A stretch of 64,000 nucleotides of DNA from the IMG/VR virus record IMGVR_UViG_3300047202_000291; one strand, written 5' to 3'. Shown in pieces: positions 4,340 to 63,202 of this stretch (position 1 is the first letter of the stretch; the number at the start of each line of letters is the position of its first letter). The position numbers were made by a program, and so were the translations under genes. The stretch is from a virus. Its lineage: Duplodnaviria > Heunggongvirae > Uroviricota > Caudoviricetes. A model generated the notes under the pieces. It saw only the letters and a list, made by a program, of their open reading frames with translations. It searched no databases and was not told the origin of the DNA.

Positions 4340-5254
4340 ATGAGGGGTTGGCATTATGAATCTCATAGGCATAGTCTTGCAGCCAAAGGCATAAAGACTT
4401 CTCAGCCAAAGCTTGCCAAGGTTCTCAGATCAGAAAATATCATCTTTGAGCCAAAATACGATGGCACGCGCATGATTCTTGAGAAGAAGGGTTCTGAGCT
4501 TACATTCATCAATAGGCGCGGTGTCGTAAAGAATGATACTTATCCTGAATTATATAATATTAATAAGAGCATCAAGGGCGATGTAATTCTCGATGGTGAA
4601 GTTGTCGTTCTAGATAAGGAGCATCCCTTTGGCAATTTTGAAAAGCTCGCAATGAGAGATAGGCTAAAAGATAAAGAGGAAATAGAGAAAAGATCCAAAA
4701 CCCTTCCATTGACTTATGTTGTTTTTGATATTCTGGAAAAAGACAGGCAAAAGGTGGCAGATTTGCCATTGTCCGAGCGGAAGAAGATTCTTGATAATGT
4801 GATTGCACAAGGAAAGAACATCAGAGAAATAGAGTTCTCAAATAAATCAAGCGAGATGTTGTCTAAAGTTAAGCAGGCAAAAGGAGAAGGAATTGTGCAA
4901 AAAGACATCAATTCTAAATATGCACCAGGTTCCACGAGGTCCTGGGAAAAATACAAGCTTCTTAAGACAAATGATGTGGCAATAATTGGTATCACTTTAG
5001 GGACGGGAAGAAGAAAAGGTTATTTTGGTGCATTAAAGATTGCAGTTAATACTCCAAAAGGTTTAAAACCTGTTGGAAAAGTCGGCACCGGATTCTCAGA
5101 CGCTGATTTAAAGGAGATAAAAAGTAGATTGGATCAAGGTGAAAAACTCGTTGCTCGAATTCAATATAGAAAAATAGGTAGTGCTGATCATTATATTGAA
5201 CCTCGTTTTCAGGCAATTCGAACAGATATTTCTCAAAGTGATACGCACGAATGA
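4340..5254 (+). CDS. ATP-dependent DNA ligase (small, viral-type) carrying the shared N-terminal GW.YESYRHSLAAKGIKT module
   Basis: Motif I EPKYDGTRM (KxDGxR), motif III VILDGEVVV, motifs V/VI GIVQKD...WEKYKLLK. SD AGGGTGAG upstream. Confidence 0.85.
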   Translation: MRGWHYESHRHSLAAKGIKTSQPKLAKVLRSENIIFEPKYDGTRMILEKKGSELTFINRRGVVKNDTYPELYNINKSIKGDVILDGEVVVLDKEHPFGNFEKLAMRDRLKDKEEIEKRSKTLPLTYVVFDILEKDRQKVADLPLSERKKILDNVIAQGKNIREIEFSNKSSEMLSKVKQAKGEGIVQKDINSKYAPGSTRSWEKYKLLKTNDVAIIGITLGTGRRKGYFGALKIAVNTPKGLKPVGKVGTGFSDADLKEIKSRLDQGEKLVARIQYRKIGSADHYIEPRFQAIRTDISQSDTHE

Positions 5255-5522: not shown

Positions 5523-6359
5523 ATGAAGGGTTGGTATTACGAATCTTATCGTCATAGTCTTGCAGCCAAAGGTATAAGGACAAATTGGGTGTTAATCAAT
5601 GAGAATCCGAGCTATAAGCGCATAAGAATCAATCGCGGATATAAAGATGTCGTCCAGGTAGATGCAAAGACTCTTAAAGAGCGTTTTGAGAAGGATAATA
5701 ATACTCCTCTTGCTTGGAAGCAATTAAGATTCGATCTTCTGAAAAACTGTGAGGAGTTTGATCAATATCCTGAGGTTGATATTCTTTCTTCTGGCAAAAT
5801 AGATTTTAATGATGGTCGTCATAGGGTTGCTGTGGCCGCAGCTCGTGGCGAGACAATCGAAATAGCAGTTAAAAATAAAGATAAATTTCTTGAGGCTTTC
5901 AGTAAGCATTCTTTTGCTGCAAAGCAGGATCCTTATGAATTTCAGGATAGCAATCAGGAGAAGATAGTTCATGCTGATTGGTGGGGTGAGCAACAATATG
6001 ATGCGAATCATAGGCCTCTTCCTTTGCTCTGGAAAGATAATGAGCTCAGATTTGTTCTTGAGGGCTCTGGCGATATTTTCAGGGAGTTCTCAATACATAA
6101 AGCGGATAACTGGTGGTTTGCTCAGAATTATATTGATGAGAAGGCAGCCCGCATTAAGAAATATCTGACTGATCCTTCTTTGGCGAATCATTCCGTCGGA
6201 GAGATAAATAAAGCAAAGCTTGCAGAGATTAGAAGGCTTTGGACAATTCAGCCTTACGAAACAGAGTTGCAGAAGAAAGCTATTGATCTGAACCTTGCGA
6301 TAATTGATAAGGACAATGAGAAGGCACTTTCAATCTTAAAGGAGGTTTCGAAAGTATGA
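5523..6359 (+). CDS. ParB-like nuclease domain protein with the shared N-terminal module
   Basis: ParB/Srx motif FNDGRHRVAVAAARGE. N-terminus MKGWYYESYRHSLAAKGIRT. Confidence 0.7.
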   Translation: MKGWYYESYRHSLAAKGIRTNWVLINENPSYKRIRINRGYKDVVQVDAKTLKERFEKDNNTPLAWKQLRFDLLKNCEEFDQYPEVDILSSGKIDFNDGRHRVAVAAARGETIEIAVKNKDKFLEAFSKHSFAAKQDPYEFQDSNQEKIVHADWWGEQQYDANHRPLPLLWKDNELRFVLEGSGDIFREFSIHKADNWWFAQNYIDEKAARIKKYLTDPSLANHSVGEINKAKLAEIRRLWTIQPYETELQKKAIDLNLAIIDKDNEKALSILKEVSKV

Positions 6360-7105
6360 ATCGTTACAAACCCCTTGGTTGGCGTTATGAATCATACAGG
6401 CATTCCTTAGCAGCCAAAGGCATCAAAACAAGGTATAAGGTGCCTCCGGCATGGAGAAATGTTAAGTATTATAAGGATAAGCCGTATGTTGTAACTGGTG
6501 TTGATAAGAAAGGTAGGGTTCAATATATTTATCCTGAATCTTTTTCTTCTGCAAGCAGTGAAAAGAAGTTTAATAGGATTGAGCGCTTTGAGAAGCAAGC
6601 ACCGGCTATAATCGATTCTGTAATGAAGGATGTTAAAAAAGGAGATAATCCCGAGGCCGAAGTTGTTTATACGATGTACAAAACTGGATTTAGGCCAGGT
6701 TCGGAGAATGATACAATGGCGGAGAAGAAGGCGTTTGGTGCATCAACTTTGCTTAAGGATCACGTTTCTGTGCGAAAAGATGATGTTAAGTTTAAATTCA
6801 TTGCTAAGAAAGGCGTTCCTGTTGAAAAAGACGTTAAGGATAAGCTTCTTGCAGATATAATTAAGAGGCGCATGCAAAGTAGACGGCTCTTTGATACCTC
6901 TGAAGGTCGTTTAAGGGCTTATTTTGATAAAAAGACCCAAGGTAGGTTCCAATTAAAGGACCTGAGGACTTTGAAGGCCTATGAGGTCGCTAAGGAGGCT
7001 GGTGGCGATAAGAAGGAGATAGCTGAACGCGTTTCAGAGGAGCTCAGCAATACGCCCGCAGTCGCGATAAGTTCTTATGTTCATCCGAGGCTGATTAATG
7101 AATAG
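6356..7105 (+). CDS. Type IB topoisomerase-like catalytic-domain protein (compact) with the shared N-terminal module
   Basis: YKTGFRPGSENDTMAEKKAFGASTLLKDHVSVRKDDVKFKFIAKKGV resembles the poxvirus-type TopoIB core (GccsLr.eHv...v.F.F.GK). C-terminal LRTLKAY is a possible catalytic Tyr. N-terminus GWRYESYRHSLAAKGIKT. Confidence 0.5.
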   Translation: MNRYKPLGWRYESYRHSLAAKGIKTRYKVPPAWRNVKYYKDKPYVVTGVDKKGRVQYIYPESFSSASSEKKFNRIERFEKQAPAIIDSVMKDVKKGDNPEAEVVYTMYKTGFRPGSENDTMAEKKAFGASTLLKDHVSVRKDDVKFKFIAKKGVPVEKDVKDKLLADIIKRRMQSRRLFDTSEGRLRAYFDKKTQGRFQLKDLRTLKAYEVAKEAGGDKKEIAERVSEELSNTPAVAISSYVHPRLINE

Positions 7106-7760
7106 ATTAAAGCCAATCGGTTGGAAATACGAAGGATATAGGCATAGTTTAGCAGCTCGAGGTATCAAAACTTCTTTTAAATTAAAATATGGAAAAGACA
7201 TTCCCGCGCAGCTTCATACTGGTTCAAAGGAATTTAAGGATATTAGCGAAGTGAAACAGCACCTCCCTTTTAAGCCAAGGGGCGGTTTTTGGACTTCGAG
7301 CTATAGGCATGATGCAGAGCCTGGATCTAAAAGTGATTGGCTTGATTGGGCATCCTCAGAAATGCCTGGGAAAGCCAGTAGTGAACACATGATTCTTAGG
7401 CCAATTCCAAATGCAAAGATATTTGAGATCGATGATGAAGAAGATATGAGATATTTGTTTGATAAATATGGAACACTTGTGAGCGGTATGCCCGATATTG
7501 ACTGGCAGAAACTCTCGCAGGATTATGATGGATTGCGTGTGACTGAGAATGCTGCACGCAAGTTTCATTTGAATTACGTTTCTATGGAGGATTTGATTAA
7601 AAAGAAGGGATTGAAAAGTCCTTTTGGAAAAGATCATTTTTTATCAGGAGTTACCTTAAATGCTTGGGACTCTGAAAGTACAATTTGGTTTAGGGATGTT
7701 TTCAAGAAGAAAACTCCCGTTGATATGAAAATAAATGCTGAAATGGATACCGGATATTGA
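7098..7760 (+). CDS. Hypothetical protein with the shared N-terminal module
   Basis: N-terminus MNRLKPIGWKYEGYRHSLAARGIKT; no other recognisable domain. Confidence 0.65.
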   Translation: MNRLKPIGWKYEGYRHSLAARGIKTSFKLKYGKDIPAQLHTGSKEFKDISEVKQHLPFKPRGGFWTSSYRHDAEPGSKSDWLDWASSEMPGKASSEHMILRPIPNAKIFEIDDEEDMRYLFDKYGTLVSGMPDIDWQKLSQDYDGLRVTENAARKFHLNYVSMEDLIKKKGLKSPFGKDHFLSGVTLNAWDSESTIWFRDVFKKKTPVDMKINAEMDTGY

Positions 7761-8809
7761 TTGTCAATACTGTCATCGACTTACTTGGGCAAGCTGGGAG
7801 AAACTAAATCACCCTCAACCTCTTTTCCTCTAATTCTTTCTCCCAGCTGTTTGATATATAGTTTCCACTTCAACAAATTATATAAACTCCAAAATCAGAT
7901 TGATTCTTATGTCGTGGACCACTAAGCAGGGCGGTCTTCTCGTCGAAGAGGACGATGAGGAGCTCTGAGCAGTAATACCGTGTGCTTAGTGCCGTGAGGC
8001 TCCCAATTTATGGATGAAGAAAAAGTTATGCAAAGGATTGAGCATCTTGTTCTTGATATTTGCGGGTGCACAAGATCCGAAGCAATTCACATACTTAAAA
8101 AAACAAGCAAAAGGTTGAAAAATATGCAGAATAAGAATGGAACCTAAGCCCCATTGTTGATTTTTATAATCAACCGTGGGAGCTATGTTAAAAAACATAA
8201 AAGTCCAATGTGACTCTAAACCCAAATTGTTTATGATTGATGCGTTTTGCATCGATTTTTCAACGACAGTGACGGTATATGTGTTTGATTGCAAGAAAAG
8301 CATCAAGCAGTATTGCCGTGATGTAGAACTTCCTTTCGAAGAGGTATTTGAAAGATGGCTTTTATTTCAATAAGTAAGTGCATAGTTTCACTCAGTCGTT
8401 AAGCCCTAAAGGGCTTCTGTGCTTTGCTTGACAAGTGAAGTGCAGTTTGGACTGAGGTGGAACCTGTGAAGCATAAGGAGAGAAATAAGGGTGCTGGCAA
8501 GGCTGGCAAGTTTTTTCTGGACAGGATTGAATCCGGGAGGATTCGAACTCCTGAAAAATGGCAGAAGTATCAGCGAAAGCATATTAAGAAGGGGAAAAAG
8601 GGCAGGCGTCCTTATCCCTGGAGAAAAAAGAAAAAGAAAACATTTAAATAAGTAAACATCCACATCGATATATTGACGGGTGCGACGGAACACTATCTAT
8701 TGTATCCTCGGGTTGTATTAGTTGTTTTATAGCATATGGATTTATAAACTGGCTATGAAGTGCAGCGAGCTGGGGCGGGGGATAGGGGATTAATGGTTAT
8801 ACATTATGT

Positions 8810-10547: not shown

Positions 10548-10759
10548 TTACTACTAAAAAGTGGGCATAAACATAAGCATTAACATAAACATCGACGATA
10601 ATGCATATGTCTCGTGCTTATGCCAAGAACATATGCTTGTGCTGGCTTAATGCTATATTTCTTGTTTTTGGGTGTCTTGAATTAGTTGATATTTTACTAC
10701 TTTTTAGTTATAAAATATTAAATTAACTACTGATTAGGAATTAAGAAAGGTTTAATAAT

Positions 10760-11035
10760 AGGGGTTGTTTTCTACTCTTGAAATAAGAGAAGGGGGGTTT
10801 TTAGCTATGAGTATTAAAGGGGGTTTATTTTTGTATGAAAGGGGGTTTAATAGGGCGATAAATAAAGGGCTATTTCTTGCGGTAATAAGGGCGATTAATA
10901 AGGGCGATATAAGGCGATATAAAAAGGCGATTTCTTGCGACTATTTAGGGCGACTAATAAGGGCGACTATTAAAGGGTTTTCTAAAAGGTTTTCTCTTGC
11001 GATTAAAGGGGTTTCTCATTATCTAATTTTTTAAT
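10760..11035. repeat. Iteron array (GGGGGTTT, TAATAAGGGCGA[TC], TTCTTGCG families)
   Basis: Direct repeats visible in sequence. The 89-aa ORF the track calls here has a translation that simply mirrors the repeats. Confidence 0.6.
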
Positions 11036-11234
11036 CACCTTTCGGTAATAACCACCACCACCAAAAAGTTTATATACTGAATATGCTTTTCTCCTTCTCA
11101 TATCGCCTATAACGGCGGTTTTGGTATTTAACCAAAAATAAGGTTTTAACCAATTAAAAGGGCAAAACGCAACCTTTAAGGCGAAAGTTTTAAAGGTTTA
11201 GGTTAAAGTTTAGTATCCTACCTTTTTGAATACT

Positions 11235-11256
11235 GCTCACTTACAGGGCTATTCGC
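11235..11256 (+). promoter_or_regulatory. 22-nt element GCTCACTTACAGGGCTATTCGC; reverse complement of the element at 52926-52948
   Basis: Near-exact (single 1-nt indel) inverted copy 41.7 kb away; sits ~120 nt upstream of the gene starting at 11373. Confidence 0.5.
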
Positions 11257-11372
11257 ACAGGAAAAACTACCTTTTCTTTTAAGGACTACGAGCATTAACA
11301 TTAAGTTCTTTTGTTAATTAAAAGGGCTTAATTTCGTTCTCCATTATTAAAACCAAATCGGAGGCGATAATA

Positions 11373-11834
11373 ATGGAAACAATAGAGAAAACAAAAATAG
11401 TAGTTCCAGAGAAAATACCTGCCCAAATCTCTAAAAAATTAGAGATGTTTGGAGAGGTTGTAGATGTAGATTTCGTTTTTGCTGGAGTAGGCAAAAATGG
11501 AACAAGGCATATATCTACAAAGTCATTTGTTCCTTCTAATGAGAAGGAAGCAAAGGCTTTTGTCATAAAGCCGTGTTTGAAGGGCTTTAAGACAGCAGAG
11601 GGATATAGAAATCCTTGGGTATGGTATTTAAACCACAAGGGTATTGTCTTTAATGACGACGGCACAATAGCCATAGTCTTAAAAGACCAAACAGAGCCAA
11701 CTATTTATAAGGTTGAGCATAAGATGATTCTCTATAATGGGGAATTATCGAATAGGAGTGGTATCACCACTTTTAGAAGGGCGGACAACGACAGCGAAAC
11801 CAGCGAACTACCATATTCGCTGGTAGAGGAATAA
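11373..11834 (+). CDS. Hypothetical protein
   Basis: Start context GGAGGCGATAATAATGG (shared with the genes at 18671 and 53187). Confidence 0.65.
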   Translation: METIEKTKIVVPEKIPAQISKKLEMFGEVVDVDFVFAGVGKNGTRHISTKSFVPSNEKEAKAFVIKPCLKGFKTAEGYRNPWVWYLNHKGIVFNDDGTIAIVLKDQTEPTIYKVEHKMILYNGELSNRSGITTFRRADNDSETSELPYSLVEE

Positions 11835-12678: not shown

Positions 12679-12792
12679 ATGAGTGACAAATGTAGTATTA
12701 AGCATTGTCGAAAAGAGAAAGAGATTACATTACCAGATGGTAGAGGACTATGTTGGGAACACTGGGAAAAGCATTGTGAGGATAAGGAATGA
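12679..12792 (+). CDS. Small Cys/His-rich protein (37 aa)
   Basis: CSIKHC...CWEHWEKHC. The track's 12583 ORF looks like a composite of this and the preceding gene. Confidence 0.35.
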   Translation: MSDKCSIKHCRKEKEITLPDGRGLCWEHWEKHCEDKE

Positions 12793-22129: not shown

Positions 22130-22152
22130 GCACTGGACAAAAATAAAAAACT

Positions 22153-22161
22153 TTATAAATC
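22153..22161 (+). promoter_or_regulatory. TATA-box-like TTTATAAAT ~33 nt upstream of the ATG at 22194
   Basis: Spacing matches an archaeal-type promoter. Confidence 0.3.
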
Positions 22162-22193
22162 ACGCTCTTTTCTTTTAGATAGGGGGTTTGCTA

Positions 22194-22472
22194 ATGAAAC
22201 GTATAAAGATTGTTGCTCTGGCAAATGATTTTACAGATAAGAGTTCTGTTAAGCCTTTGTTTTTGGAACTTGAACACTATGAGGAGAAGCCAATCCCAAA
22301 AGAGCAGGATATATTTTCAGCACATTCTTTTGATACTTTACAGCAGTCAGCTAAGGACCTTGTGAATAGTATCTGGACTGCTTTTAATTCATTTCTTAAA
22401 ATGTCTATGTGGGCAATCATTGTTATTGCGGAAGCCTTAAAATGGCTATGGAATAAAGCGTTTAAAAAATAA
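22194..22472 (+). CDS. Hypothetical protein
   Basis: ATG at 22194. Confidence 0.5.
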   Translation: MKRIKIVALANDFTDKSSVKPLFLELEHYEEKPIPKEQDIFSAHSFDTLQQSAKDLVNSIWTAFNSFLKMSMWAIIVIAEALKWLWNKAFKK

Positions 22473-34070: not shown

Positions 34071-34088
34071 AAAAGATAAAAAGCAAAA

Positions 34089-34107
34089 AGCGAAACATTT
34101 ATATATG
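34089..34107 (+). promoter_or_regulatory. Archaeal-type BRE/TATA promoter AGCGAAACATTTATATATG; near-leaderless start at ATG 34132
   Basis: BRE-like GCGAAA plus TATA TTTATATA sit 27 nt before the ATG. The same 17-mer recurs at 52879. Confidence 0.5.
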
Positions 34108-34131
34108 TTATAGCATTTAGTGAGGTTTAAG

Positions 34132-34500
34132 ATGACAAAGATTTTTGAATTTAAAAAAAAGAAGAAGCTGTCGGGAGAAGAAATGAAGACACTCGTTCAA
34201 GAAAATTTGGATAAGATGTCTCGGGACGAAATTGAAAAGATTCTCGTCGAGGATTTTAATTCTATATTTTCAAATTTCAAGGAATTTACCTGCGTTTGGT
34301 CTTTCTTTAATTTCTTGATCGACAAGCGTAAGGAAAAAGTATTTGCTACGACAAGAGATTCTCTTGTCGGAAAGCATAAGGCTAATTTTGAGAAGCAGTA
34401 TGGTATTAAGATTATTTTCATAGAGGTGGATAAAAATGGAAATAAAAAAGAAAATAACTCTAAGCTTGACGAAAAGGAAAGGCCGTTTTATTGCTCATAG
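34132..34500 (+). CDS. Lys-rich hypothetical protein
   Basis: ATG at 34132 downstream of the TATA element. Confidence 0.55.
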   Translation: MTKIFEFKKKKKLSGEEMKTLVQENLDKMSRDEIEKILVEDFNSIFSNFKEFTCVWSFFNFLIDKRKEKVFATTRDSLVGKHKANFEKQYGIKIIFIEVDKNGNKKENNSKLDEKERPFYCS

Positions 34501-42654: not shown

Positions 42655-42915
42655 ATGCAGTTTAAGACGAAAGCCTGCTTAAGGATAGAGAAATTTTTGA
42701 GGAAGGAATGTGTTGGCTGTTTCTTTTCTACTTGGCGGCCTTATGAGCCTTTTAGTGCTGTGCTTTGTGATATTTCTGGGAAGCAAAAGAAGCCAACCGA
42801 TTCCTGTAAAAAATTTAAGTGTTCTGAGTTTAGGAAAAAGGAGATGCATAGGCTCCTTTTGCAGTGTTCTCCGAGGGAGAAAAAAGAGCTTTCAAAATTC
42901 ATTGGACAAAAATAA
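42655..42915 (+). CDS. Cys-rich hypothetical protein
   Basis: ATG at 42655. Confidence 0.45.
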   Translation: MQFKTKACLRIEKFLRKECVGCFFSTWRPYEPFSAVLCDISGKQKKPTDSCKKFKCSEFRKKEMHRLLLQCSPREKKELSKFIGQK

Positions 42916-42965
42916 CGAAACATTTATAAACTTAATAACTTTAGTGGGTTTGATAAGGTGATAAA

Positions 42966-43292
42966 ATGGCAGCAACTTTGTTTTGGATGGATATGATTCG
43001 GGACAGGTTGATTTCTTATCCTTATAAAAATAAGGAAGAAAAGAAACTTATCAGTAATTTTATGGCTCCGGTTATTTTAATGGGGGTCGAAGCAGAGCGC
43101 GATCTTAACAAAAGCCTCAAACAGTCTTTACGTGAAACCAAGCATGATTGTGGGGCAGCCTCAAAGATTCTGATTAAGGAATTAATGCATGTTGATAAAT
43201 CTATAATTGCTAAAAAGCCTAATTGTATTTTCTGTGGAAAGCCTCTTGATAAGCATAGTGGAAATTGCAAGGTGAAGCCTAGTGACTTATAA
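42966..43292 (+). CDS. Hypothetical protein with a CxxC...C motif
   Basis: ATG ORF on the + strand. Confidence 0.5.
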   Translation: MAATLFWMDMIRDRLISYPYKNKEEKKLISNFMAPVILMGVEAERDLNKSLKQSLRETKHDCGAASKILIKELMHVDKSIIAKKPNCIFCGKPLDKHSGNCKVKPSDL

Positions 43293-45765: not shown

Positions 45766-46734
45766 ATGGAAGAAGATTTAAGGAAAGTAATGAAGATTGT
45801 CCTTACGGGAGGAGTGATTTTGATATTTATAATCCTGTTTTTTGGGACATTCTATACAATACAGTCGGGTCAGGAGGGTATTCTTTTGACTTTCAATAAG
45901 GCAGCGCCAGCAGGTATTCAGCCAGGGCTTCATCTGAAGTTTCCATTGATCCAGAGAATTGTGAAATTCAATGTCAGGACGCAGGCTTACGGCGCTAGCG
46001 GAACTGAAAACACATTGGAAAGTGCAGCATCATCAGATCTTCAGCAAGTGAAGATGCAGTTGGTTGTGAATTACCATTTAACTGCGGGTAGAGTTCCCGA
46101 GTTGTTCACAAACGTAGGGCCTGCTTATGAAGATACTGTTATTAGGCCAACAGTTCATGAAGCAACAAAGGCTTGTACAGCGAAATTTGCGGCAGTGGAG
46201 CTAATTAATAAGAGAGAGGACGTAAGTGTTTGTATGAGCGATTTGTTGAAGGGGAAACTAGGTATATATAATATAGTGGTTGAGCAGGTATCAATCACGG
46301 CCTTTGATTTCAGTGAGCAATTCAACAACGCTATCGAACAAAAAGTAACAGCAGAGCAGGATGCATTGAAAGCAAGGAATAAGCTTGAGCAGATTAAGAT
46401 GGAAGCTGAGCAAGTTCGTGCGGCTGCAGCAGGGCAAAGGGACGCTAAGATAGCTACTGCTGAGGGAGAGGCTCAATATATCAAGCTCATTCAGGAGCAG
46501 CTTATAAGGAGTCCTCAATACATTGAGTATGTGAAAGCAAAGCAGTGGAATGGTGTGTTGCCTCAATTTTATATGAGTGGCAGCAGTAATCCGTTGATCA
46601 TGCAGTTGCCTAGCTTGACATCGAGTAGCTTGACTGCTTCGAGCAGCGGGTATGTGCCGGTGGAGGTTCCATTGACTATGCCTGGTGAGATTATTGCACA
46701 TGGTACGAATGCGACAAATTCAACCAAAGCTTGA
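45766..46734 (+). CDS. SPFH/band-7 (prohibitin/HflK-like) membrane protein
   Basis: N-terminal TM; GQEGILLTFNK...PGLHLKFPLIQ...VQLVVNYHL; C-terminal coiled coil. Confidence 0.75.
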   Translation: MEEDLRKVMKIVLTGGVILIFIILFFGTFYTIQSGQEGILLTFNKAAPAGIQPGLHLKFPLIQRIVKFNVRTQAYGASGTENTLESAASSDLQQVKMQLVVNYHLTAGRVPELFTNVGPAYEDTVIRPTVHEATKACTAKFAAVELINKREDVSVCMSDLLKGKLGIYNIVVEQVSITAFDFSEQFNNAIEQKVTAEQDALKARNKLEQIKMEAEQVRAAAAGQRDAKIATAEGEAQYIKLIQEQLIRSPQYIEYVKAKQWNGVLPQFYMSGSSNPLIMQLPSLTSSSLTASSSGYVPVEVPLTMPGEIIAHGTNATNSTKA

Positions 46735-52879: not shown

Positions 52880-52900
52880 AGCGAAACATTTAAATATATT
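52879..52900 (+). promoter_or_regulatory. BRE/TATA-like promoter AAAGCGAAACATTTAAATATAT
   Basis: Shares AAGCGAAACATTTA.ATAT with the 34087 promoter. Nothing but a 4-codon ORF follows before the terminator. Confidence 0.45.
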
Positions 52901-52911
52901 AAACTTACTTG

Positions 52912-52990
52912 ATTGATTATGTTTGCGAAATAGCCCTGTAAGTGAGCTGTGGCGGGATAATTAAACTTGTCCCGCCTTCATTTTTATAGG
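52912..52990 (+). ncRNA. Candidate ~80-nt small RNA (promoter, 23-nt element, intrinsic terminator), antisense-complementary to 11235-11256
   Basis: TATA at 52889-98. GCGAAATAGCCCTGTAAGTGAGC at 52926-48. Hairpin GGCGGGA-N12-TCCCGCC at 52952-77 followed by TTCATTTTT. Confidence 0.35.
52952..52990 (+). terminator. Hairpin plus T-tract terminator-like element
   Basis: GGCGGGATAATTAAACTTGTCCCGCC then TTCATTTTTA. Confidence 0.5.
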
Positions 52991-53007
52991 TCGGAGGAGG
53001 TTGGGTG

Positions 53008-58730: not shown

Positions 58731-58931
58731 AAATGGAAAATAGAAAAATTTATAAACGTCATTGCATCACTGGTGCTTTATGGTAAGAATTAAGGGACTC
58801 ATACTGTGGTTGAAATCCACGACATCGGCTACCTTAAATAGTTCAGCGACCAGTTGCTGATCCATTTGCCATAGTTTTCTTCAATCATTATTTGCTATGG
58901 ACTTAAGATTTCTATGGCAATTTTTCACATT

Positions 58932-59089
58932 GGTTCCGTAGCTTAGCAGTTAAAGCATCTGGCCGTTAGTGCGTCCGTCACAGACCCCAAATCTGTGCAG
59001 CATCGTGACCTGCGAATAATTGTTTTGACGCGGGACAACGCAAGACAACGGTGACCAGGCGAGCCTCGGTGCAAATCCGAGCGGAACCG
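58932..59089 (+). tRNA. tRNA with an ~85-nt intervening sequence (anticodon possibly GTT/Asn)
   Basis: Acceptor GGTTCCG/CGGAACC; D-arm GCTT-AGCAGTTA-AAGC; T-arm CTCGG-TGCAAAT-CCGAG. Anticodon stem TCTGG/CCAGG flanks an insertion at 37/38. Confidence 0.5.
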
Positions 59090-59109
59090 TTTTGGGTGCG
59101 TAGGTGCGT

Positions 59110-59198
59110 AGGTGCGTAGCTCAACAAAAGAGCACCAGGCCTTTTATCAATGAAAGAAACCTGCGAGGTTGCGAGTGAGAATCTCGTCGCGCCCACCA
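59110..59198 (+). tRNA. tRNA-like element with encoded 3' CCA, preceded by GGTGCGTA x3 (identity unresolved)
   Basis: 3' CGCGCCC-A-CCA; D-arm GCTC-AACAAAA-GAGC; T-arm GCGAG-TGAGAAT-CTCGT. Anticodon region irregular. Confidence 0.3.
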
Positions 59199-59200
59199 TT

Positions 59201-59274
59201 GGGGTTGTGGGGTCTTAACAGAAACCTGTCGGTCTCCAGAACCGAAGATCCGTGTGCGAATCACGGCAATCCCA
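59201..59274 (+). tRNA. tRNA-Trp (CCA)
   Basis: Acceptor GGGGTTG/CAATCCC; anticodon arm TCGGT-CTCCAGA-ACCGA; T-arm CCGTG-TGCGAAT-CACGG. Confidence 0.7.
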
Positions 59275-59284
59275 TTTTTTTAAA

Positions 59285-59356
59285 GGGCTCTGGGTAGGGA
59301 AGCGACACGCCTCGCTTGCAACGAGGAAACAGCGCGAGCATTACGCGCAGAGTCCA
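59285..59356 (+). tRNA. tRNA-Ala (TGC)-like
   Basis: Acceptor GGGCTCT/AGAGTCC; anticodon arm CCTCG-CTTGCAA-CGAGG; T-arm GCGCG-AGCATTA-CGCGC (atypical loop). Confidence 0.35.
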
Positions 59357-59416
59357 TTATTTGTAATCATTACAAAAAATAATGATTAATAATCATATCG
59401 CGAAAAAAAGTTATAT

Positions 59417-59499
59417 GCGCAGTTGGGGAAGCGGTCAAACCCGCTCCGCTTAGGACGGAGTGCCTAGCGCTACCACAGGTTCGAATCCTGTACTGCGCA
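59417..59499 (+). tRNA. tRNA-Leu (TAG), type II
   Basis: Acceptor GCGCAGT/ACTGCGC; anticodon arm CTCCG-CTTAGGA-CGGAG; 14-nt variable arm; T-arm ACAGG-TTCGAAT-CCTGT. Confidence 0.8.
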
Positions 59500-59501
59500 T
59501 C

Positions 59502-59617
59502 GCGGACGTGTCCGAGCGGCCGAAGGAGCCAGATTCAAATAAAGGCTAAACTTAAAGCCATCGGAGAAATCTGGTGCTAAGTGCATAACAACAGCGGTTC
59601 AACTCCGCTCGTCCGCA
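59502..59617 (+). tRNA. tRNA-Leu (CAA) with an ~30-nt intron at 37/38
   Basis: Acceptor GCGGACG/CGTCCGC; anticodon stem CCAGA...TCTGG flanks TTCAAA plus a hairpin-containing insert; long variable arm; T-arm AGCGG-TTCAACT-CCGCT. Confidence 0.7.
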
Positions 59618-59621
59618 GTTT

Positions 59622-59706
59622 GCTGTGGTAGGACAACAGTAGTCCAGCTGGCCTGTAAAAAAAATCAAGTAACCAGCCAATCCCGATGCAACTTCGGGCC
59701 GCAGCT
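59622..59706 (+). tRNA. tRNA with a ~14-nt intron (anticodon probably TGT/Thr)
   Basis: Acceptor GCTGTGG/CCGCAGC; D-arm GGAC-AACAGTA-GTCC; anticodon stem GCTGG/CCAGC flanks 21 nt; T-arm CCCGA-TGCAACT-TCGGG. Confidence 0.5.
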
Positions 59707-59764
59707 TATTAATATTTCAGGCTTAAAATGTTAATCAGAAATTCCTTATTAATATTAGTGATAT

Positions 59765-59836
59765 GGAACAGTGGCCAAGCAGTAAGGCGCGAAGCTGCAA
59801 TCTTCGTATGCGAGAGTGCAATCCTCTCCTGTTCCT
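59765..59836 (+). tRNA. tRNA-Cys (GCA)
   Basis: Acceptor GGAACAG/CTGTTCC; anticodon arm CGAAG-CTGCAAT-CTTCG; T-arm GAGAG-TGCAATC-CTCTC. Confidence 0.7.
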
Positions 59837-59838
59837 TT

Positions 59839-59983
59839 GCCCGGATGATTGGGGAATCTGGTAATCCCGCTGGTCCGCTAATGCCCAGAATCGAATGGCT
59901 TAGCCCAGAATTGAATTTTGGACTTGCCCAGAATGGAACACCAGGATCGAAAGGTCATCTCGGTTCGAATCCGAGTCCGGGCG
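59839..59983 (+). tRNA. tRNA with a ~65-nt intervening sequence containing 3x GCCCAGAAT (identity unresolved)
   Basis: Perfect acceptor GCCCGGA/TCCGGGC; canonical T-arm CTCGG-TTCGAAT-CCGAG; D-arm region with GG. Confidence 0.45.
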
Positions 59984-60506
59984 TATGATTCAGAGTAAAC
60001 CATATGTGAAGACAGTGAATTATCATTGCCTTAGATGTAAATCTTAATAAATCGCATTTTAAGAGAGACTCGACGGTGATCTGTAAGACCTGTGGTTCAG
60101 AGCGTCGATGGAACCAAAAAATTTAAATATAAGTGTATGCTACAACATAAAGGATACTTGGTTTCCTTCATGCTTTCGATGCAAGGCCCGGGGAGAGCCT
60201 CAATCTCCTCATTTATATTCATTGAATAGCGGCTTCGGAAAAGGGGCTGATAACAACAGGCGAGGCTGTTGATAACCCAGTCGCTCAAAAATTCAGGTGA
60301 TTTACTTTCAATGTTAAACATGGAACAGAACGGACTGAGCATCGGAAGAACCGGGCGAACTCAAAGGAGATATATCGCCGGTTGCTTTGGGCATCAAGTA
60401 GACCAGCCCATAGTCCAATAGGCCTCTTCTGTTCCATAACAGCTTCTAAAAATTTGTGGACATTCCATTGGTTGTTTTGGAACAGCCAGAGTTCTATTCG
60501 GATTAT

Positions 60507-60578
60507 ACGGACTTAGTAGAATAGCTAGCACGCAGGGCTCATAACCCTGAGAAGGTGGCGCAATTCCACCAGTCCGTA
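60507..60578 (+). tRNA. tRNA-Met/Ile2 (CAT)
   Basis: Acceptor ACGGACT/AGTCCGT; anticodon arm CAGGG-CTCATAA-CCCTG; T-arm GGTGG-CGCAATT-CCACC; weak D-stem. Confidence 0.55.
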
Positions 60579-60606
60579 GTTATTCACACTTAACTATGAT
60601 ATGTTC

Positions 60607-60679
60607 CTGCGCTTGGTGTAACAGCTTAGCACAATTGGCCGTAGCCCAATTAGAACCGGTGCAATTCCGGTAGCGCAGA
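60607..60679 (+). tRNA. tRNA-Tyr (GTA), short variable arm (archaeal/eukaryal type)
   Basis: Acceptor CTGCGCT/AGCGCAG; anticodon arm ATTGG-CCGTAGC-CCAAT; 4-nt variable region; T-arm ACCGG-TGCAATT-CCGGT. Confidence 0.65.
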
Positions 60680-60681
60680 TT

Positions 60682-60754
60682 GGCCTCATGGTGTAACAAG
60701 TCAACATGTAAGCCTGTCAAGCTTACGCTTCGGATGCAAGATCCGATGAGGCCG
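60682..60754 (+). tRNA. tRNA-Asp (GTC)
   Basis: Acceptor GGCCTCA/TGAGGCC; anticodon arm TAAGC-CTGTCAA-GCTTA; T-arm TCGGA-TGCAAGA-TCCGA. Confidence 0.75.
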
Positions 60755-60823
60755 TTGCAGGCGTAGCTAAGCAGTCACAGCACGCAGATATGCAAAATTA
60801 TTTAAATAAGCATCATATCACAT

Positions 60824-61285
60824 ATGAATATGATGTGGAAAACATGGAAAAGAATTAGTAGGGGAGAATATTGGTTTGCAAAGATTCCAGAGCATCCTAA
60901 TGCAGATAAGAATGGATATGTGCTCGAGCATAGGATTATTATGGAAAATTTGCTAAATAGAGTATTGCAATCATCAGAAATTGTTCATCATGAAAATAAA
61001 AATACAAAAGATAATCGACCTGAAAATTTAAAATTGATGAATAAAGGAATCCATGCTAGAGAACACAATTTAGAAAGGGGGAGGATTTTTGTAAAATTAA
61101 GATGTCCTAATTGTGGAAAACAATTTATAAAGGCAAAAAATCAAACCCATCTAACAGCAAAAAGAAATTCAGCCACTTTTTGTTCATTAAAGTGTTCTGG
61201 AAAGCACAAGCACAATTACGAGCCCAATATTATTGAAGTATTCAAAACAAAAAATTCCGGAACACGAGATAAAGCAAAAATATGA
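60824..61285 (+). CDS. HNH homing endonuclease (HNH_3 family), AT-rich insert within the tRNA array
   Basis: GYVLEHRIIMENLLNR...EIVHHENKNTKDNRPENLKLM...HAREH. Confidence 0.8.
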   Translation: MNMMWKTWKRISRGEYWFAKIPEHPNADKNGYVLEHRIIMENLLNRVLQSSEIVHHENKNTKDNRPENLKLMNKGIHAREHNLERGRIFVKLRCPNCGKQFIKAKNQTHLTAKRNSATFCSLKCSGKHKHNYEPNIIEVFKTKNSGTRDKAKI

Positions 61286-61294
61286 TTCTTTTCT

Positions 61295-61407
61295 GCAGGT
61301 GTGTCCAAGCGGTCAAGGAGCCCGACTGATACGTCAAGTGTCCGGGAATTATATGTCCCCTTGACTAAGAGTTCGGGAAAGCGCAGGTTCGATTCCTGCC
61401 ACCTGCA
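61295..61407 (+). tRNA. tRNA-Ile (GAT) with a 40-nt intron at 37/38
   Basis: Acceptor GCAGGTG/CACCTGC; CCCGA-CTGATA|intron|T-TCGGG; T-arm GCAGG-TTCGATT-CCTGC. Confidence 0.65.
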
Positions 61408-61411
61408 TTTT

Positions 61412-61484
61412 GCTCCTGTAGTTAGCCTGGTTAATCACACCGGACTTTCAATCCGGAGCTCGAGTCCAAATCTCGACAGGAGTA
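61412..61484 (+). tRNA. tRNA-Glu (TTC)
   Basis: Acceptor GCTCCTG/CAGGAGT; anticodon arm CCGGA-CTTTCAA-TCCGG; T-arm TCGAG-TCCAAAT-CTCGA. Confidence 0.6.
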
Positions 61485-61485
61485 T

Positions 61486-61559
61486 GGGGTCGTAGTGTAG
61501 TTTGGTATCATCCTTCGCTTGGGACGAAGTGATCCTGCGTTCGAATCGCAGCGACCCCA
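61486..61559 (+). tRNA. tRNA-Pro (TGG)
   Basis: Acceptor GGGGTCG/CGACCCC; anticodon arm CTTCG-CTTGGGA-CGAAG; T-arm CTGCG-TTCGAAT-CGCAG. Confidence 0.75.
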
Positions 61560-61611
61560 TTCAGTTGATTATAACAACAAATATGATGATTTCGGTTGAG
61601 AATAGAAATGC

Positions 61612-61683
61612 GCGGAGGTAATTTAGTAGTAAAATGCTTCGTTGCCAACGAAGATAGCGTGGGTGCGATCCCCACCTTCCGCA
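61612..61683 (+). tRNA. tRNA-Gly (GCC)
   Basis: Acceptor GCGGAGG/CTTCCGC; D-arm ATTT/AAAT; anticodon arm CTTCG-TTGCCAA-CGAAG; T-arm GTGGG-TGCGATC-CCCAC. Confidence 0.7.
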
Positions 61684-61728
61684 TTAGATAAAAAATATAT
61701 GAAGTATGGAAAAATCTCCATACATTAT

Positions 61729-61801
61729 TGGCGCGTAGTGAAACAGACGATCACGGCAGCCTTCTAAGCTGCAGTTCCGGATGCAACTTCCGGCGTGCCA
61801 A
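61729..61801 (+). tRNA. tRNA-Arg (TCT)
   Basis: D-arm GTGA/TCAC; anticodon arm GCAGC-CTTCTAA-GCTGC; T-arm CCGGA-TGCAACT-TCCGG; acceptor TGGCGCG/CGTGCCA (one GU pair). Confidence 0.65.
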
Positions 61802-61803
61802 TT

Positions 61804-61877
61804 GCGCGCATCGGCTAATCAGGATATGTCGTCCAGCTACGGACTGGAAGGTGTGGATTCAAATTCCACTGCGCGCT
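61804..61877 (+). tRNA. tRNA-Arg (ACG)-like
   Basis: Acceptor GCGCGCA/TGCGCGC; anticodon arm TCCAG-CTACGGA-CTGGA; T-arm GTGGA-TTCAAAT-TCCAC; D-arm irregular. Confidence 0.5.
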
Positions 61878-61878
61878 T

Positions 61879-62121
61879 ATGAAATTTGAACAGCATTGCA
61901 AAAAAAGTAAGAGGCTCTTCAACGAAGATGGAGCTCTCTTTCATAGATGGATTGATATGTTCGCAGCAGAGGAAGGATATGCGCACAGGCATATCTTGCA
62001 TACATTCAAAGGAATGATACTTGGAATAGAGATATTTGGAGAAGCTGCAGGAAAGCACCTTGAGCAGCACATAAGGGATGACTTGCAATTAAAGAAGAAA
62101 GATGAGCTTCCAATATTTTAA
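61879..62121 (+). CDS. Hypothetical protein (His-rich), abutting the tRNA 3' end
   Basis: ATG 2 nt after the tRNA; 80 aa. Confidence 0.4.
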   Translation: MKFEQHCKKSKRLFNEDGALFHRWIDMFAAEEGYAHRHILHTFKGMILGIEIFGEAAGKHLEQHIRDDLQLKKKDELPIF

Positions 62122-62168
62122 ACACCTCTGAACCTGGAAACACCAGCGCGCATCTGGTCGGCGGAATT

Positions 62169-62240
62169 GAGGTCTTAGCTTAGCTAGGAGAGCACATGAC
62201 TGAAGCTCATGCTACCTGGGTGCAATTCCCAGAGACCTCA
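62169..62240 (+). tRNA. tRNA-Phe (GAA)
   Basis: Acceptor GAGGTCT/AGACCTC; D-arm GCTT/GAGC; anticodon arm CATGA-CTGAAGC-TCATG; T-arm CTGGG-TGCAATT-CCCAG. Confidence 0.75.
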
Positions 62241-62244
62241 TCCA

Positions 62245-62736
62245 ATGTACGACAAATATAAAATAATAGCGACCAAGGAAGAGTATTATGCAACTTGGGA
62301 TCGGGAGAACGTAGATATGCTTAGCGAGAGCCTCAAGGAGATGATCTATCAAAAATATTTCCTTAAGTGCATCGTCTTCCAGCGTGACAATTTTAAATGC
62401 CAGAATGAGCATTGCAAGCACGCAGATAACAGATTAACTTTACATCATATCAAGTTCAAGAAGAATAATGGTAAGGATAAGCCAAAAAATGCAGTTACTC
62501 TTTGCAAGTCATGCCATAATGCATATCACCAAGGCAAGACCATGTTGACCTTTTGGGGAATGACTTATCGGATTCAGAAGCAGGAAGGAGAAATAAATTG
62601 GAAGGCCCAGAAGGCAAAAGGCAAAACCATCAGGACTGAAAACAGAGAACATTGTGGCTTCAAAATAAGTTGGAAGCTTTTAGCTATATTGATGAGATTC
62701 CTTGAAAGAGAATATACGGAGTTGGATGATGACTGA
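62245..62736 (+). CDS. HNH endonuclease (start trimmed to the first ATG after the tRNA)
   Basis: CQNEHCKHADNRLTLHHIKFKKNNGKDKPKNAVTLCKSCHNAYH. The track start at 62209 lies inside tRNA-Phe. Confidence 0.65.
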   Translation: MYDKYKIIATKEEYYATWDRENVDMLSESLKEMIYQKYFLKCIVFQRDNFKCQNEHCKHADNRLTLHHIKFKKNNGKDKPKNAVTLCKSCHNAYHQGKTMLTFWGMTYRIQKQEGEINWKAQKAKGKTIRTENREHCGFKISWKLLAILMRFLEREYTELDDD

Positions 62737-62832
62737 GACAATCAATGAGCTGTATGATAGGCTAGGCTTACATAAATGGTGGCAAGAGCCTTTGCCAGAA
62801 AATAGCATCATAAATGATTTACCACTATAGAC

Positions 62833-62903
62833 GCGCTGCAGATGTTGAAGTAGCATACCTGCCTTCCAAGCAGGGTGGATGGGTGCGATTCCCATGCGGC
62901 GCA
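62833..62903 (+). tRNA. tRNA-Gly (TCC)
   Basis: Acceptor GCGCTGC/GCGGCGC; D-arm ATGT/GCAT; anticodon arm CCTGC-CTTCCAA-GCAGG; T-arm ATGGG-TGCGATT-CCCAT. Confidence 0.7.
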
Positions 62904-62904
62904 T

Positions 62905-62978
62905 ATGCGAGTAGTGTAACAGTTTATGCACGACAGACTGTGACTCTGTAAGATTGGGTGCAACTCCCAGCTCGCATA
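62905..62978 (+). tRNA. tRNA-His (GTG)
   Basis: Anticodon arm ACAGA-CTGTGAC-TCTGT; T-arm TTGGG-TGCAACT-CCCAG; acceptor ATGCGAG/CTCGCAT. Confidence 0.55.
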
Positions 62979-62980
62979 TT

Positions 62981-63069
62981 GGGCGAATGGTCCAATCCGG
63001 AACACGACGCCTGGCTAACAAATATTTTTAGAATCCAGGAAGCTCAAGGTTCAAATCCTTGTTCGCCCA
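62981..63069 (+). tRNA. tRNA with a ~13-nt intron (anticodon unresolved, possibly AAC)
   Basis: Acceptor GGGCGAA/TTCGCCC; anticodon stem CCTGG/CCAGG flanks 20 nt; T-arm CAAGG-TTCAAAT-CCTTG. Confidence 0.45.
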
Positions 63070-63202
63070 TAAATAAAAGCAAAGCTTTATATATATGTTC
63101 CAACATACACCCTTTATCCGATAGGCGGTATAAAGCCAAATTCGGAATAAGCGGTAAGCAAAGCTTCGTGCGACGCTAAATCCGCAACAAGGAGAGAGAA
63201 AC

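Follow-up and report, generated by a model that had tools for sequence, protein, structure and literature searches.

The start codon at position 34132 of a 64,000-nucleotide viral contig (the whole stretch is hereafter called the window) is preceded by an AT-rich octamer that adjoins a purine-rich element. The question raised by this locus is whether the two elements together form a promoter and, if so, which transcription machinery would read it. An earlier note on this DNA had proposed that this motif and several similar ones are archaeal promoters composed of a BRE and a TATA box. Based on the analyses described below, we conclude that the motif sites are probably strong archaeal core promoters and that the large virus-like element carrying them would replicate in an archaeon.

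Identity and Locations of the Motif Sites

The sequence CGAAACATTTAWAWA is present in three exact copies in the window, at 34091, 42916, and 52882, and looser copies of this type are found at 22143, 58740, and 11060, among others. Exact and looser copies reside on the coding strand throughout, and very few of them fall within genes. An 8-bp AT-rich TATA box (TTTAWAWA or TWTATATA) is found at 34098, 42923, 52889, 22152, and 58749, and the BRE variants AGCGAAACA, AACGAAACA, and ACCGAAACA each lie immediately 5′ of the TATA box.

The sites named by the earlier note are all present. [quoted passage not shown] In addition, TTTATAAAT at 22152–22160 is located 33 nt from the ATG at 22194, and AAAAATTTATAAAC at 58744/5–58758 lies about 175 nt before the first tRNA gene (58932). 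One exact copy had been overlooked, namely AACGAAACATTTATAAA at 42914–42930, upstream of the ATG at 42966.

The predicted promoters, the genes and leaders behind them, and the tRNA genes described in this report are all on the plus strand. Promoter S1 (34089–34105) is predicted to consist of the BRE AGCGAAACA (34089–34097) and the TATA box TTTATATA (34098–34105). It precedes a gene (34132–34500) for a 122-aa protein that matches no family, and whose N terminus is homologous to that of its ortholog in the related contig L002, which confirms ATG 34132 as the start codon. A look-up of this gene product returned only the source contig, and it yielded no transcript-like contigs ending at the start site. 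Promoter S2 (52880–52896) carries the same BRE, AGCGAAACA, followed by the TATA box TTTAAATA (52889–52896). Promoter S3 (42914–42930) combines the BRE AACGAAACA with the TATA box TTTATAAA (42923–42930), and a Shine–Dalgarno (SD) sequence, AAGGTGAT (42956–42963), follows before ATG 42966. Because TTTATAAA is palindromic, the direction of such a site would be set by its BRE.

Other candidates depart further from these three. The site at 22143–22159 has an A-rich BRE, ATAAAAAAC, and the TATA box TTTATAAA (22152–22159), whereas that at 58740–58756, which precedes a tRNA array, joins the BRE ATAGAAAAA to the same TATA box (58749–58756). A candidate at 11060–11076 (ACCAAAAAG plus TTTATATA) lies within a noncoding, iteron-rich region of about 800 nt, and the 270 nt that follow it contain no open reading frame (ORF). 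A weaker candidate at 8634–8650 (AAGAAAACA plus TTTAAATA) is located at the end of a small ORF, and one at 60113–60129 (ACCAAAAAA plus TTTAAATA) lies in the tRNA region, upstream of a Met/Tyr/Asp tRNA cluster. These last three, at 11060, 8634, and 60113, are good matches with no obvious gene behind them. Overall, about ten strong sites are present for about 150 genes.

The Motif Is Enriched in Intergenic DNA and Oriented with the Genes

The frequency of the motif was compared with that in 300 dinucleotide-preserving shuffles. The pattern put forward in the earlier note, [AC]GAAA-N2-4-TTTA[TA]ATA, occurs four times on the plus strand and never on the minus strand (shuffle mean 0.09). The related pattern GAAA-N1-4-TTTAWAWA occurs seven times, again exclusively on the plus strand (shuffle mean 0.86), and CGAAACATTTA is found three times on the plus strand and is absent from the minus strand (shuffle mean 0.02). 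For each of these patterns, none of the 300 shuffles reaches the observed count, and the excess over chance persists when shuffling is confined to intergenic DNA. Thus, the motif occurs far above chance, and a chance origin is ruled out.

The matches are also concentrated between genes. Intergenic DNA makes up 14% of the window, but it holds five of the seven matches to GAAA-N1-4-TTTAWAWA. A weighted match to ACCGAAANNTTTATATA at a score of at least 11.5 identifies 11 sites in the window, all on the plus strand, and seven of them are intergenic by our own ORF calls, compared to about 14% expected. When the same search is extended to six nonredundant loci of the family, 24 sites are found on the plus strand and one on the minus strand, with the BRE on the upstream side.

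Searches that used no prior pattern give a similar picture. Among 8-mers ranked by their intergenic versus coding frequency in the window plus five relatives, AACATTTA (24×), GAAACATT (17×), and CGAAACAT (13×) are among those at the top, as are SD words such as TGAGGTGA. An unguided repeat search recovered a 33-nt family at 34085, 42910, and 58736, of which the site before the tRNA array is a member. The motif is real, repeated, and conserved, and no other intergenic word is as strongly enriched across the window and five related metagenomic contigs. The possibility raised in the earlier note that it might not be enriched upstream of genes does not agree with these counts.

Repeated intergenic words can also serve replication, packaging, or recombination, and might lie between genes by coincidence. 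The copy at 11060 provides some reason to consider this, given that its iteron-rich, noncoding surroundings could be an origin. However, it is highly improbable that the motif as a whole is a nonpromoter repeat of this kind. Its orientation follows the coding strand strictly (24:1), and a fixed distance of 25 to 38 nt separates it from start codons at most sites. Moreover, the copies match the BRE/TATA consensus base for base and are dispersed rather than clustered.

The Motif Is Retained While Its Surroundings Diverge

Relatives of the window include L002, L006, L007, and L009, with 80%, 65%, 47%, and 42% identity in the DUF2201 protein, respectively, and L012, with 65% identity in an SPFH protein. 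All five have a layout like that of the window, with small ORFs on one strand, and identical or related contigs derive from sediment and freshwater metagenomes. The window itself corresponds to a Logan contig of run SRR35914825 and to a JGI contig of 117 kb. Orthologous copies of S1 are present in L002 (12659) and L006 (8639), where CGAAA(C/G)ATTTATATAT is kept. Between these orthologs, the distance from the upstream stop codon to the motif differs by an 18-nt indel. Similarly, the S3 copy is kept in L012 (8771) and L006 (15834), and the S2 copy is kept in L012 (17489), where the motif is identical throughout. Thus, in orthologous intergenic regions of L002, L006, and L012, the motif is retained even though its flanks have diverged or carry indels. 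When 15 sites are aligned, the columns that show no variation are AAA and TTTA.A, corresponding to the BRE core and the TATA box.

Some copies are more alike than basal promoters need to be. Identity extends over 15 to 19 nt among copies, and likeness over as much as 15 to 33 nt. S1 and S3 resemble each other up to the predicted start (TTAWAAC.TTTAGTGRG), and L009 carries three exact copies of ACCGAAACATTTATATA ahead of genes, which share an additional block, CTTRGTTTATCG, after the TATA box. These likenesses are what would be expected of a virus-specific cassette of 17 to 33 nt, in which a basal promoter is combined with an operator for a virus-encoded factor so as to define one temporal class of genes. 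We nevertheless consider such a cassette rather unlikely. The part common to all copies is exactly the BRE plus the TATA box, the blocks downstream of it differ among paralogs (S2 versus S1 and S3 versus L009), and a regulator was not found. Furthermore, a scan of IMG/VR revealed two to three copies each in other low-GC viral contigs (L114, L151, L144, L165/167, and L109). Two of these contigs have one or two genes in common with the window, and the 15-mer recurs in contigs that share no more than one or two genes with it (L114, L151, L144, and L165). This distribution indicates that the sequence is not private to the lineage of the window.

Fit to Archaeal Core Promoters

[quoted passage not shown] In haloarchaea, the BRE consensus is CGAAA (PMC2151090, PMC4983044). 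The family consensus found in the relatives, ACCGAAACA-TTTATATA, matches the preferences stated for M. jannaschii position by position. Thus, sequence, orientation, placement, and conservation all support the proposal that these are archaeal BRE/TATA promoters.

By analogy with established archaeal transcription, the TBP of the host would bind the 8-bp TATA box TTTAWAWA, and its TFB would read the purine-rich BRE, (A/C)(C/G)CGAAACA, directly upstream and thereby set the direction of transcription. [quoted passage not shown] If so, the approximately ten sites would punctuate an array of about 150 same-strand genes that extends over about 60 kb, where they may head or boost multigene transcripts.

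Predicted Start Sites and Leaders

Start sites were predicted by combining the 23 ± 2 nt rule, which was measured in one methanogen, with the presence of a T-purine step. Such a step occurs within the window of 21 to 25 nt at every site, although this is weak evidence in AT-rich DNA. For S1, the predicted start is A34129 (T/A step, 23 nt past the TATA edge), which would leave a leader of about 3 nt before ATG 34132 and thus an essentially leaderless mRNA. The S1 ortholog in L002 is likewise predicted to have a leader of 0 to 2 nt before an ATG.

The remaining sites are predicted to behave differently. For S3, a start at 42952–42955 would give a leader of 11 to 14 nt that opens with AAGGTGAT, and for the TATA box at 22152, a start near 22181 would give a leader of about 13 nt that opens with the SD sequence GGGGGT. 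S2 is predicted to start at 52919–52921, which would produce a structured leader of about 85 nt. From the TATA box at 58749, transcription would begin at A58780, about 150 nt before the gene for tRNA-Asn, and would drive the first tRNA cluster as a precursor of the tRNA array. Among the relatives, start codons usually lie 34 to 38 nt past the TATA edge, a spacing that predicts short, SD-bearing leaders and to which S1 is an exception. If a leaderless mRNA is taken to be one that lacks an SD and has fewer than about 10 nt before its start codon, near-leaderless starts, as described in the earlier note, are expected for the promoter at 34098, but most of the others are predicted to have SD-bearing leaders of 11 to 15 nt, and those of S2 and 58749 would be far longer.

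The sequence GTGAGGT, located just 5′ of ATG 34132, might be taken for an SD. However, it aligns with GTGGGTT of S3, which is separate from the SD of S3 and lies upstream of the predicted S3 start. Given this alignment, GTGAGGT looks like a conserved promoter-proximal sequence rather than a ribosome-binding site that is used.

The common occurrence of SD sequences was regarded in the earlier note as being at odds with archaeal promoters. Among 150 ORFs in the window, 45% have a match of at least 5 nt to GGAGGTGATC at −21 to −3, compared to 9% of random positions. There is no conflict between the two features, because M. jannaschii pairs BRE/TATA promoters with SD leaders: 130 of its 134 mapped mRNAs have a leader of at least 10 nt, and 86 of the 134 have a ribosome-binding site (PMC2699501). 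Many Euryarchaeota use such promoters together with short, SD-led leaders, and a pattern already known in archaea, in which first genes are leaderless and those inside operons are SD-led, is reported for Sulfolobus (PMC2699501).

A Conserved, Predicted Leader Behind S2

The predicted leader of S2 (52919–53007) is conserved, and it contains a hairpin formed by GGCGGGAUAA and UUGUCCCGCC (52951–52976), followed by TTCATTTTT, the SD GGAGGAGG, and a start codon that is either GTG 53005 or ATG 53008. Two differences within the stem of the corresponding L012 leader keep the pairing. Folding of the leader gives a minimum free energy of −28.8 kcal/mol with a z-score of −1.98, and a search of Rfam with this leader matched no family. 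In addition, a 22-nt segment of the leader (52929–52950) is complementary to the noncoding region at 11232–11253, which is located 41 kb away.

We speculate, with low confidence, that these features belong to a larger scheme. The element, whose four tRNA introns would be spliced by the host, might represent an undescribed lineage of large archaeal viruses (with a contig of at least 117 kb and without close relatives among INPHARED and IMG/VR records) in which copy-pasted, near-perfect BRE/TATA cassettes constitute a virus-specific expression program, and in which the complementarity between the S2 leader and 11232–11253 serves as an RNA–RNA control circuit.

The tRNA Array and the Domain of the Host

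Promoter geometry alone is also compatible with a bacterial reading, and so the archaeal assignment depends on the features of the tRNA genes. An array of about 20 tRNAs occupies 58.9 to 63.1 kb, and four of its members carry predicted introns, each located between positions 37 and 38. The gene for tRNA-Asn(GTT) (58932–59089) contains an intron of 85 nt (58969–59053), with the helix CCGU/ACGG between the bulges UA^G and UG^A. In the gene for tRNA-Leu(CAA) (59502–59617), the intron has 29 nt (59540–59568) and the central helix is UUCA/GGAG. The gene for tRNA-Ile(GAT) (61295–61407) has an intron of 40 nt (61332–61371) and the helix CUGA/UAAG between the bulges UA^C and AG^U, and an inner helix, GUCAAG/CUUGAC, stacks directly on CUGA/UAAG. 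The smallest intron, of 13 nt (63021–63033), is found in the gene for tRNA-Val(AAC) (62981–63069), where the helix CUAA/UUAG lies between the bulges CA^A and AA^U.

In each of these genes, a helix of 4 bp arises between nucleotides 32 to 35 and the 3′-terminal bases of the intron, and all four pairs form for Asn and Val and three of four for Ile and Leu. Bulges of 3 nt flank the helix, and both splice sites follow the second base of a bulge in four of four introns. The 5′ splice site of tRNA-Asn falls within an internal loop, as in the relaxed form of this arrangement. Matches to the Rfam tRNA model extend across the interruptions in the Asn, Ile, and Val genes. The four predicted introns match the bulge-helix-bulge structure that is cut by the archaeal splicing endonuclease, whereas tRNA introns in bacteria belong to group I, splice themselves, and measure about 200 nt or more.

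Two other tRNAs provide similar information. The tRNA-Tyr(GTA) gene (60607–60679) is 73 nt in length, with a short variable arm, C1:G72, and A73. A short arm with C1:G72 is characteristic of archaea and eukaryotes, whereas bacterial tRNA-Tyr has a long arm and G1:C72. An initiator-type tRNA-Met(CAT) (60507–60578) combines A1:U72 and A73 with an anticodon stem that is closed by three G:C pairs. Again, A1:U72 with three G:C pairs is the archaeal and eukaryotic form, and bacterial initiators have a C1xA72 mismatch. Judged from these predicted structures, the tRNA array indicates, independently of the promoters, that the host is archaeal. About half of the approximately 20 tRNAs also have an unusual A18/G55 elbow.

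An SPFH protein of the stomatin/prohibitin family (encoded at 45766–46734) has its nearest cellular homologs in archaea, including one on a contig from a Methanosarcinales metagenome-assembled genome (54% identity) and others from Nano-/Woesearchaeota (45 to 47%). The 503-kb contig that encodes a homolog with 47% identity carries archaeal marker genes. The contig binned as Methanosarcinales (L016) was rejected as evidence for that host, since the SPFH gene is the only one that it has in common with the window.

These characteristics weigh heavily against the idea that the motif is a promoter of a bacterial phage, in which an AT-rich, −10-like box with an upstream element would be read by a host or phage sigma factor, transcription would start about 7 nt downstream, and an SD leader would follow. 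The short-arm tRNA-Tyr, the A1:U72 pair of tRNA-Met, and four introns of 13 to 85 nt that would be unable to self-splice are not expected in such a phage, nor are archaeal proteins expected as the nearest cellular homologs of its SPFH protein. A megablast search with 33 to 36 kb of the window found no DNA-level match among 50,697 phage records. Sigma70-like usage had been named in the earlier note as the finding that would speak against archaeal promoters. In a sequence search of the region between 22 and 42 kb, however, sigma-70-type sites (TTGACA-N16-18-TATAAT) are not enriched, with 65 found compared to 57.3 ± 7.7 expected, and they show no strand preference and do not occur at motif sites. 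A bacterial phage promoter is thus very unlikely, despite a distance of 26 to 38 nt from box to ATG with an SD between them that suits bacterial geometry, the strong usage of SD sequences, and a phage-like gene content that includes the ATPase and DUF2201 families of PHROG. A promoter of the Bacteroidetes type (TTTG ... TAnnTTTG) was also considered by eye and rejected, because its spacing does not fit and this phylum does not use SD sequences.

The earlier note had pointed to low-GC archaea such as methanogens. The sequence of the motif does match the methanogen pattern base for base, and the TTTATATA box has been described as characteristic of methanogens, but the host may belong to another lineage. 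Introns in tRNA-Asn, tRNA-Leu, tRNA-Ile, and tRNA-Val, together with the relaxed motif of tRNA-Asn, are more typical of TACK, DPANN, and Asgard archaea than of methanogens, and these lineages are common in such sediments.

Nature of the Element

The window has a GC content of 39%, with a strong positive GC skew throughout. It encodes about 165 mostly small ORFs, nearly all on the plus strand, with an average length of about 130 aa and many overlapping stop and start codons. Recognizable products include a 1328-aa Kelch-repeat protein, two ATP-dependent DNA ligases, a type IB topoisomerase, a MoxR-like ATPase with a DUF2201 metallopeptidase/VWA partner, the SPFH protein, and an Ea47-like protein, and several of these match PHROG families. 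Given the small same-strand ORFs, the tRNA array, and the PHROG matches, the window looks like a virus-like element rather than an archaeal chromosome, where “virus” is used on the basis of gene content and architecture. A Borg-like element was considered as well and rejected, because the window is without pervasive perfect tandem repeats and has tiny, virus-like ORFs.

Close relatives of individual proteins are scarce. Scans of IMG/VR with the ligase and with the DUF2201 protein revealed no close relatives, and a profile scan of the same resource found relatives only at 33% identity or less. The best tblastn relatives of the MoxR-like ATPase are bacterial phages with no more than 27% identity, which is uninformative with regard to the host. 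Exact record look-ups with the Kelch protein and the ligase found nothing, and a metagenome scan with the Kelch protein recovered only distant relatives of the Kelch domain, which lack the motif. Searches of promoter-proximal and larger genes against Pfam and NCBIfam yielded nothing diagnostic for a domain of life.

Because the tRNA features described above, including introns at 37/38, are also compatible with eukaryotes, and because there are Pfam matches to Kelch, Topoisom_I, and DNA_ligase_A, the AT-rich early promoter of a eukaryotic giant virus (nucleocytoplasmic large DNA virus) must be weighed. The pervasive SD sites, far more frequent than at random positions, and the operon-like packing, with its overlapping stop and start codons and short products, exclude a eukaryotic virus. 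In addition, the PHROG matches are to families of prokaryotic viruses, and the BRE holds a constant position next to the TATA box, on its upstream side. We therefore regard the giant-virus reading as extremely improbable, and we favor an archaeal virus-like element whose genes are probably transcribed from BRE/TATA promoters.

Implications and Comparison with Known Systems

Together, the motif and the tRNA features would identify what had been an anonymous, “phage-like” contig as a virus-like element of archaea. This assignment alters how genes are called, because leaderless starts, archaeal promoters, and spliced tRNAs need to be taken into account. It also provides about ten concrete predictions of promoters and start sites for an uncultivated virus family, and the near-perfect ACCGAAACA-TTTATATA cassettes may be useful as portable promoters of high strength, or as queries with which to find related archaeal viruses in metagenomes.

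The promoter type itself is textbook, and the use of host-type BRE/TATA promoters by archaeal viruses is already known, such that nothing here is new in kind. The closest likeness is to the core promoters of methanogens, with which the sites share an 8-bp TATA box (TTTATATA or TWTATATA) and, at most sites, short leaders that are predicted to bear an SD. The methanogen BRE, with its nine positions and A, C, C, and G at the 5′ end, is also fitted by ACCGAAACA-TTTATATA of L002 and L009, and nearly so by AGCGAAACA of the window. However, the copies examined herein barely depart from the consensus or from one another, unlike most cellular promoters, which differ from it at several positions, and the host of the element may not be a methanogen.

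Compared to the basal promoter of haloarchaea (TATA element TTWT), the sites have an identical BRE core, CGAAA, and leaderless transcripts, which are predicted here for S1, are found in haloarchaea (PMC2151090, PMC4983044). In contrast, haloarchaeal TATA boxes are shorter and weaker, their genomes are GC-rich, and SD sequences are rare, whereas the element has a GC content of 39% and is rich in SD sequences.

Archaeal viruses such as SSV1, with its T5 and T6 promoters, use the TBP and TFB of the host. The element would similarly borrow the basal machinery of its host through consensus BRE/TATA sequences placed before blocks of genes. It differs from SSV1 in that it belongs to another virus lineage, has a much larger genome with a tRNA array, and is known here from sequence alone. 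Finally, the late promoter of phage T4, TATAAATA, is likewise an AT-rich octamer that precedes genes in a large, tRNA-bearing virus genome. However, the T4 box is located at −10 and has no BRE, and the tRNA evidence from the window argues against translation and RNA processing of the bacterial type.

Two Candidate Classes of Viral tRNAs

Within the tRNA array of this archaeal virus-like element (58931-63070), the nucleotides at the tRNA elbow covary perfectly over the 17 tRNAs compared. Position 55 is a near-universal U in tRNAs. In 9 of these 17, however, the T-loop reads TGC or CGC and thus places a G at this position (the tRNAs Asn, Cys, Met, Tyr, Asp, Gly, Arg-TCT, Phe, and His). All nine of these RNAs also carry AG in place of GG in the D-loop, and therefore have A18, whereas the eight tRNAs with a TTC or TCC T-loop all retain GG. 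This co-occurrence of A18 and G55 suggests that the viral tRNAs comprise two classes, one of which would have its 18-55 contact re-paired.

Four of the tRNA genes are interrupted by introns (58969-59053, 59540-59568, 61332-61371, and 63021-63033) whose splice sites adopt the bulge-helix-bulge form, which implies that the element depends on a splicing endonuclease and ligase supplied by the host. Rfam identifies additional tRNA-like genes at 59110-59195, 59203-59274, and 62835-62901. A perfect tandem repeat of 8 nt, GGTGCGTA, occurs three times at 59095-59119, right at the 5′ end of the first of these, which is a weak match.

A Conserved Predicted Leader and a Distant Complementary Region

The long predicted leader (52919-53007) downstream of the S2 promoter at 52889 forms a hairpin that is conserved in the related metagenomic contig L012 (17520-17620), where the nucleotide differences preserve pairing. 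The hairpin is followed by a run of T nucleotides just 5′ of the SD of a 52-aa ORF. An Rfam search with this leader matched no family. The leader could serve as an attenuator or as a protein-binding site.

A segment of 22 nt within the conserved leader (52929-52950) is 95% complementary to 11232-11253. If the + strand is transcribed at both locations, the two RNAs could pair. Conservation was compared for the leader copy of this segment, which is retained in L012. The partner segment resides in a stretch of about 800 nt without coding sequence (10550-11373) that carries clustered iterons, including approximately four to six copies of TAATAAGGGCGAT within 10850-10995, as well as AAGGGGGTTT-type repeats. 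Position 11060 in the same region marks a promoter-like site that scores high and is not followed by an ORF. This region could be a replication origin, a noncoding RNA locus, or both.

Protein-Coding Features of the Window and Its Relatives

Four successive genes open with a shared peptide of about 20 aa, GWxYE(S/G)xRHSLAA(K/R)GI(K/R)T (4340-4400, 5523-5583, 6371-6430, and 7113-7172). These genes encode DNA ligase, an unknown 278-aa protein, a type IB topoisomerase, and an unknown 220-aa protein. A search of five relatives did not detect the peptide, which may be a common targeting or interaction tag for DNA enzymes.

In the related contig L002 (80% identity in DUF2201), the S1 promoter and the gene orthologous to that starting at 34132 are separated by an ORF of 27 codons (12701-12784). 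Its start coincides exactly with the predicted transcription start, and it would be a leaderless micro-ORF; the window has no counterpart. LAGLIDADG domains are present in the MoxR-like ATPase gene of L002 (4760-7057, 765 aa) and in a DUF2201 homolog (P0002, 584 aa), which suggests intein or homing-endonuclease insertions. Such insertions are absent from the window.

The Predicted Promoter Motif in Other Viral Contigs

The 15-mer (A/C)CGAAACATTTATAWA is present in two or three copies before genes in low-GC (20-35%) viral contigs from IMG/VR, namely L114, L151, L144, L165/L167, and L109, among which L144 and L151 have one or two genes in common with the window. This 15-mer may serve as a useful search key for archaeal viruses.
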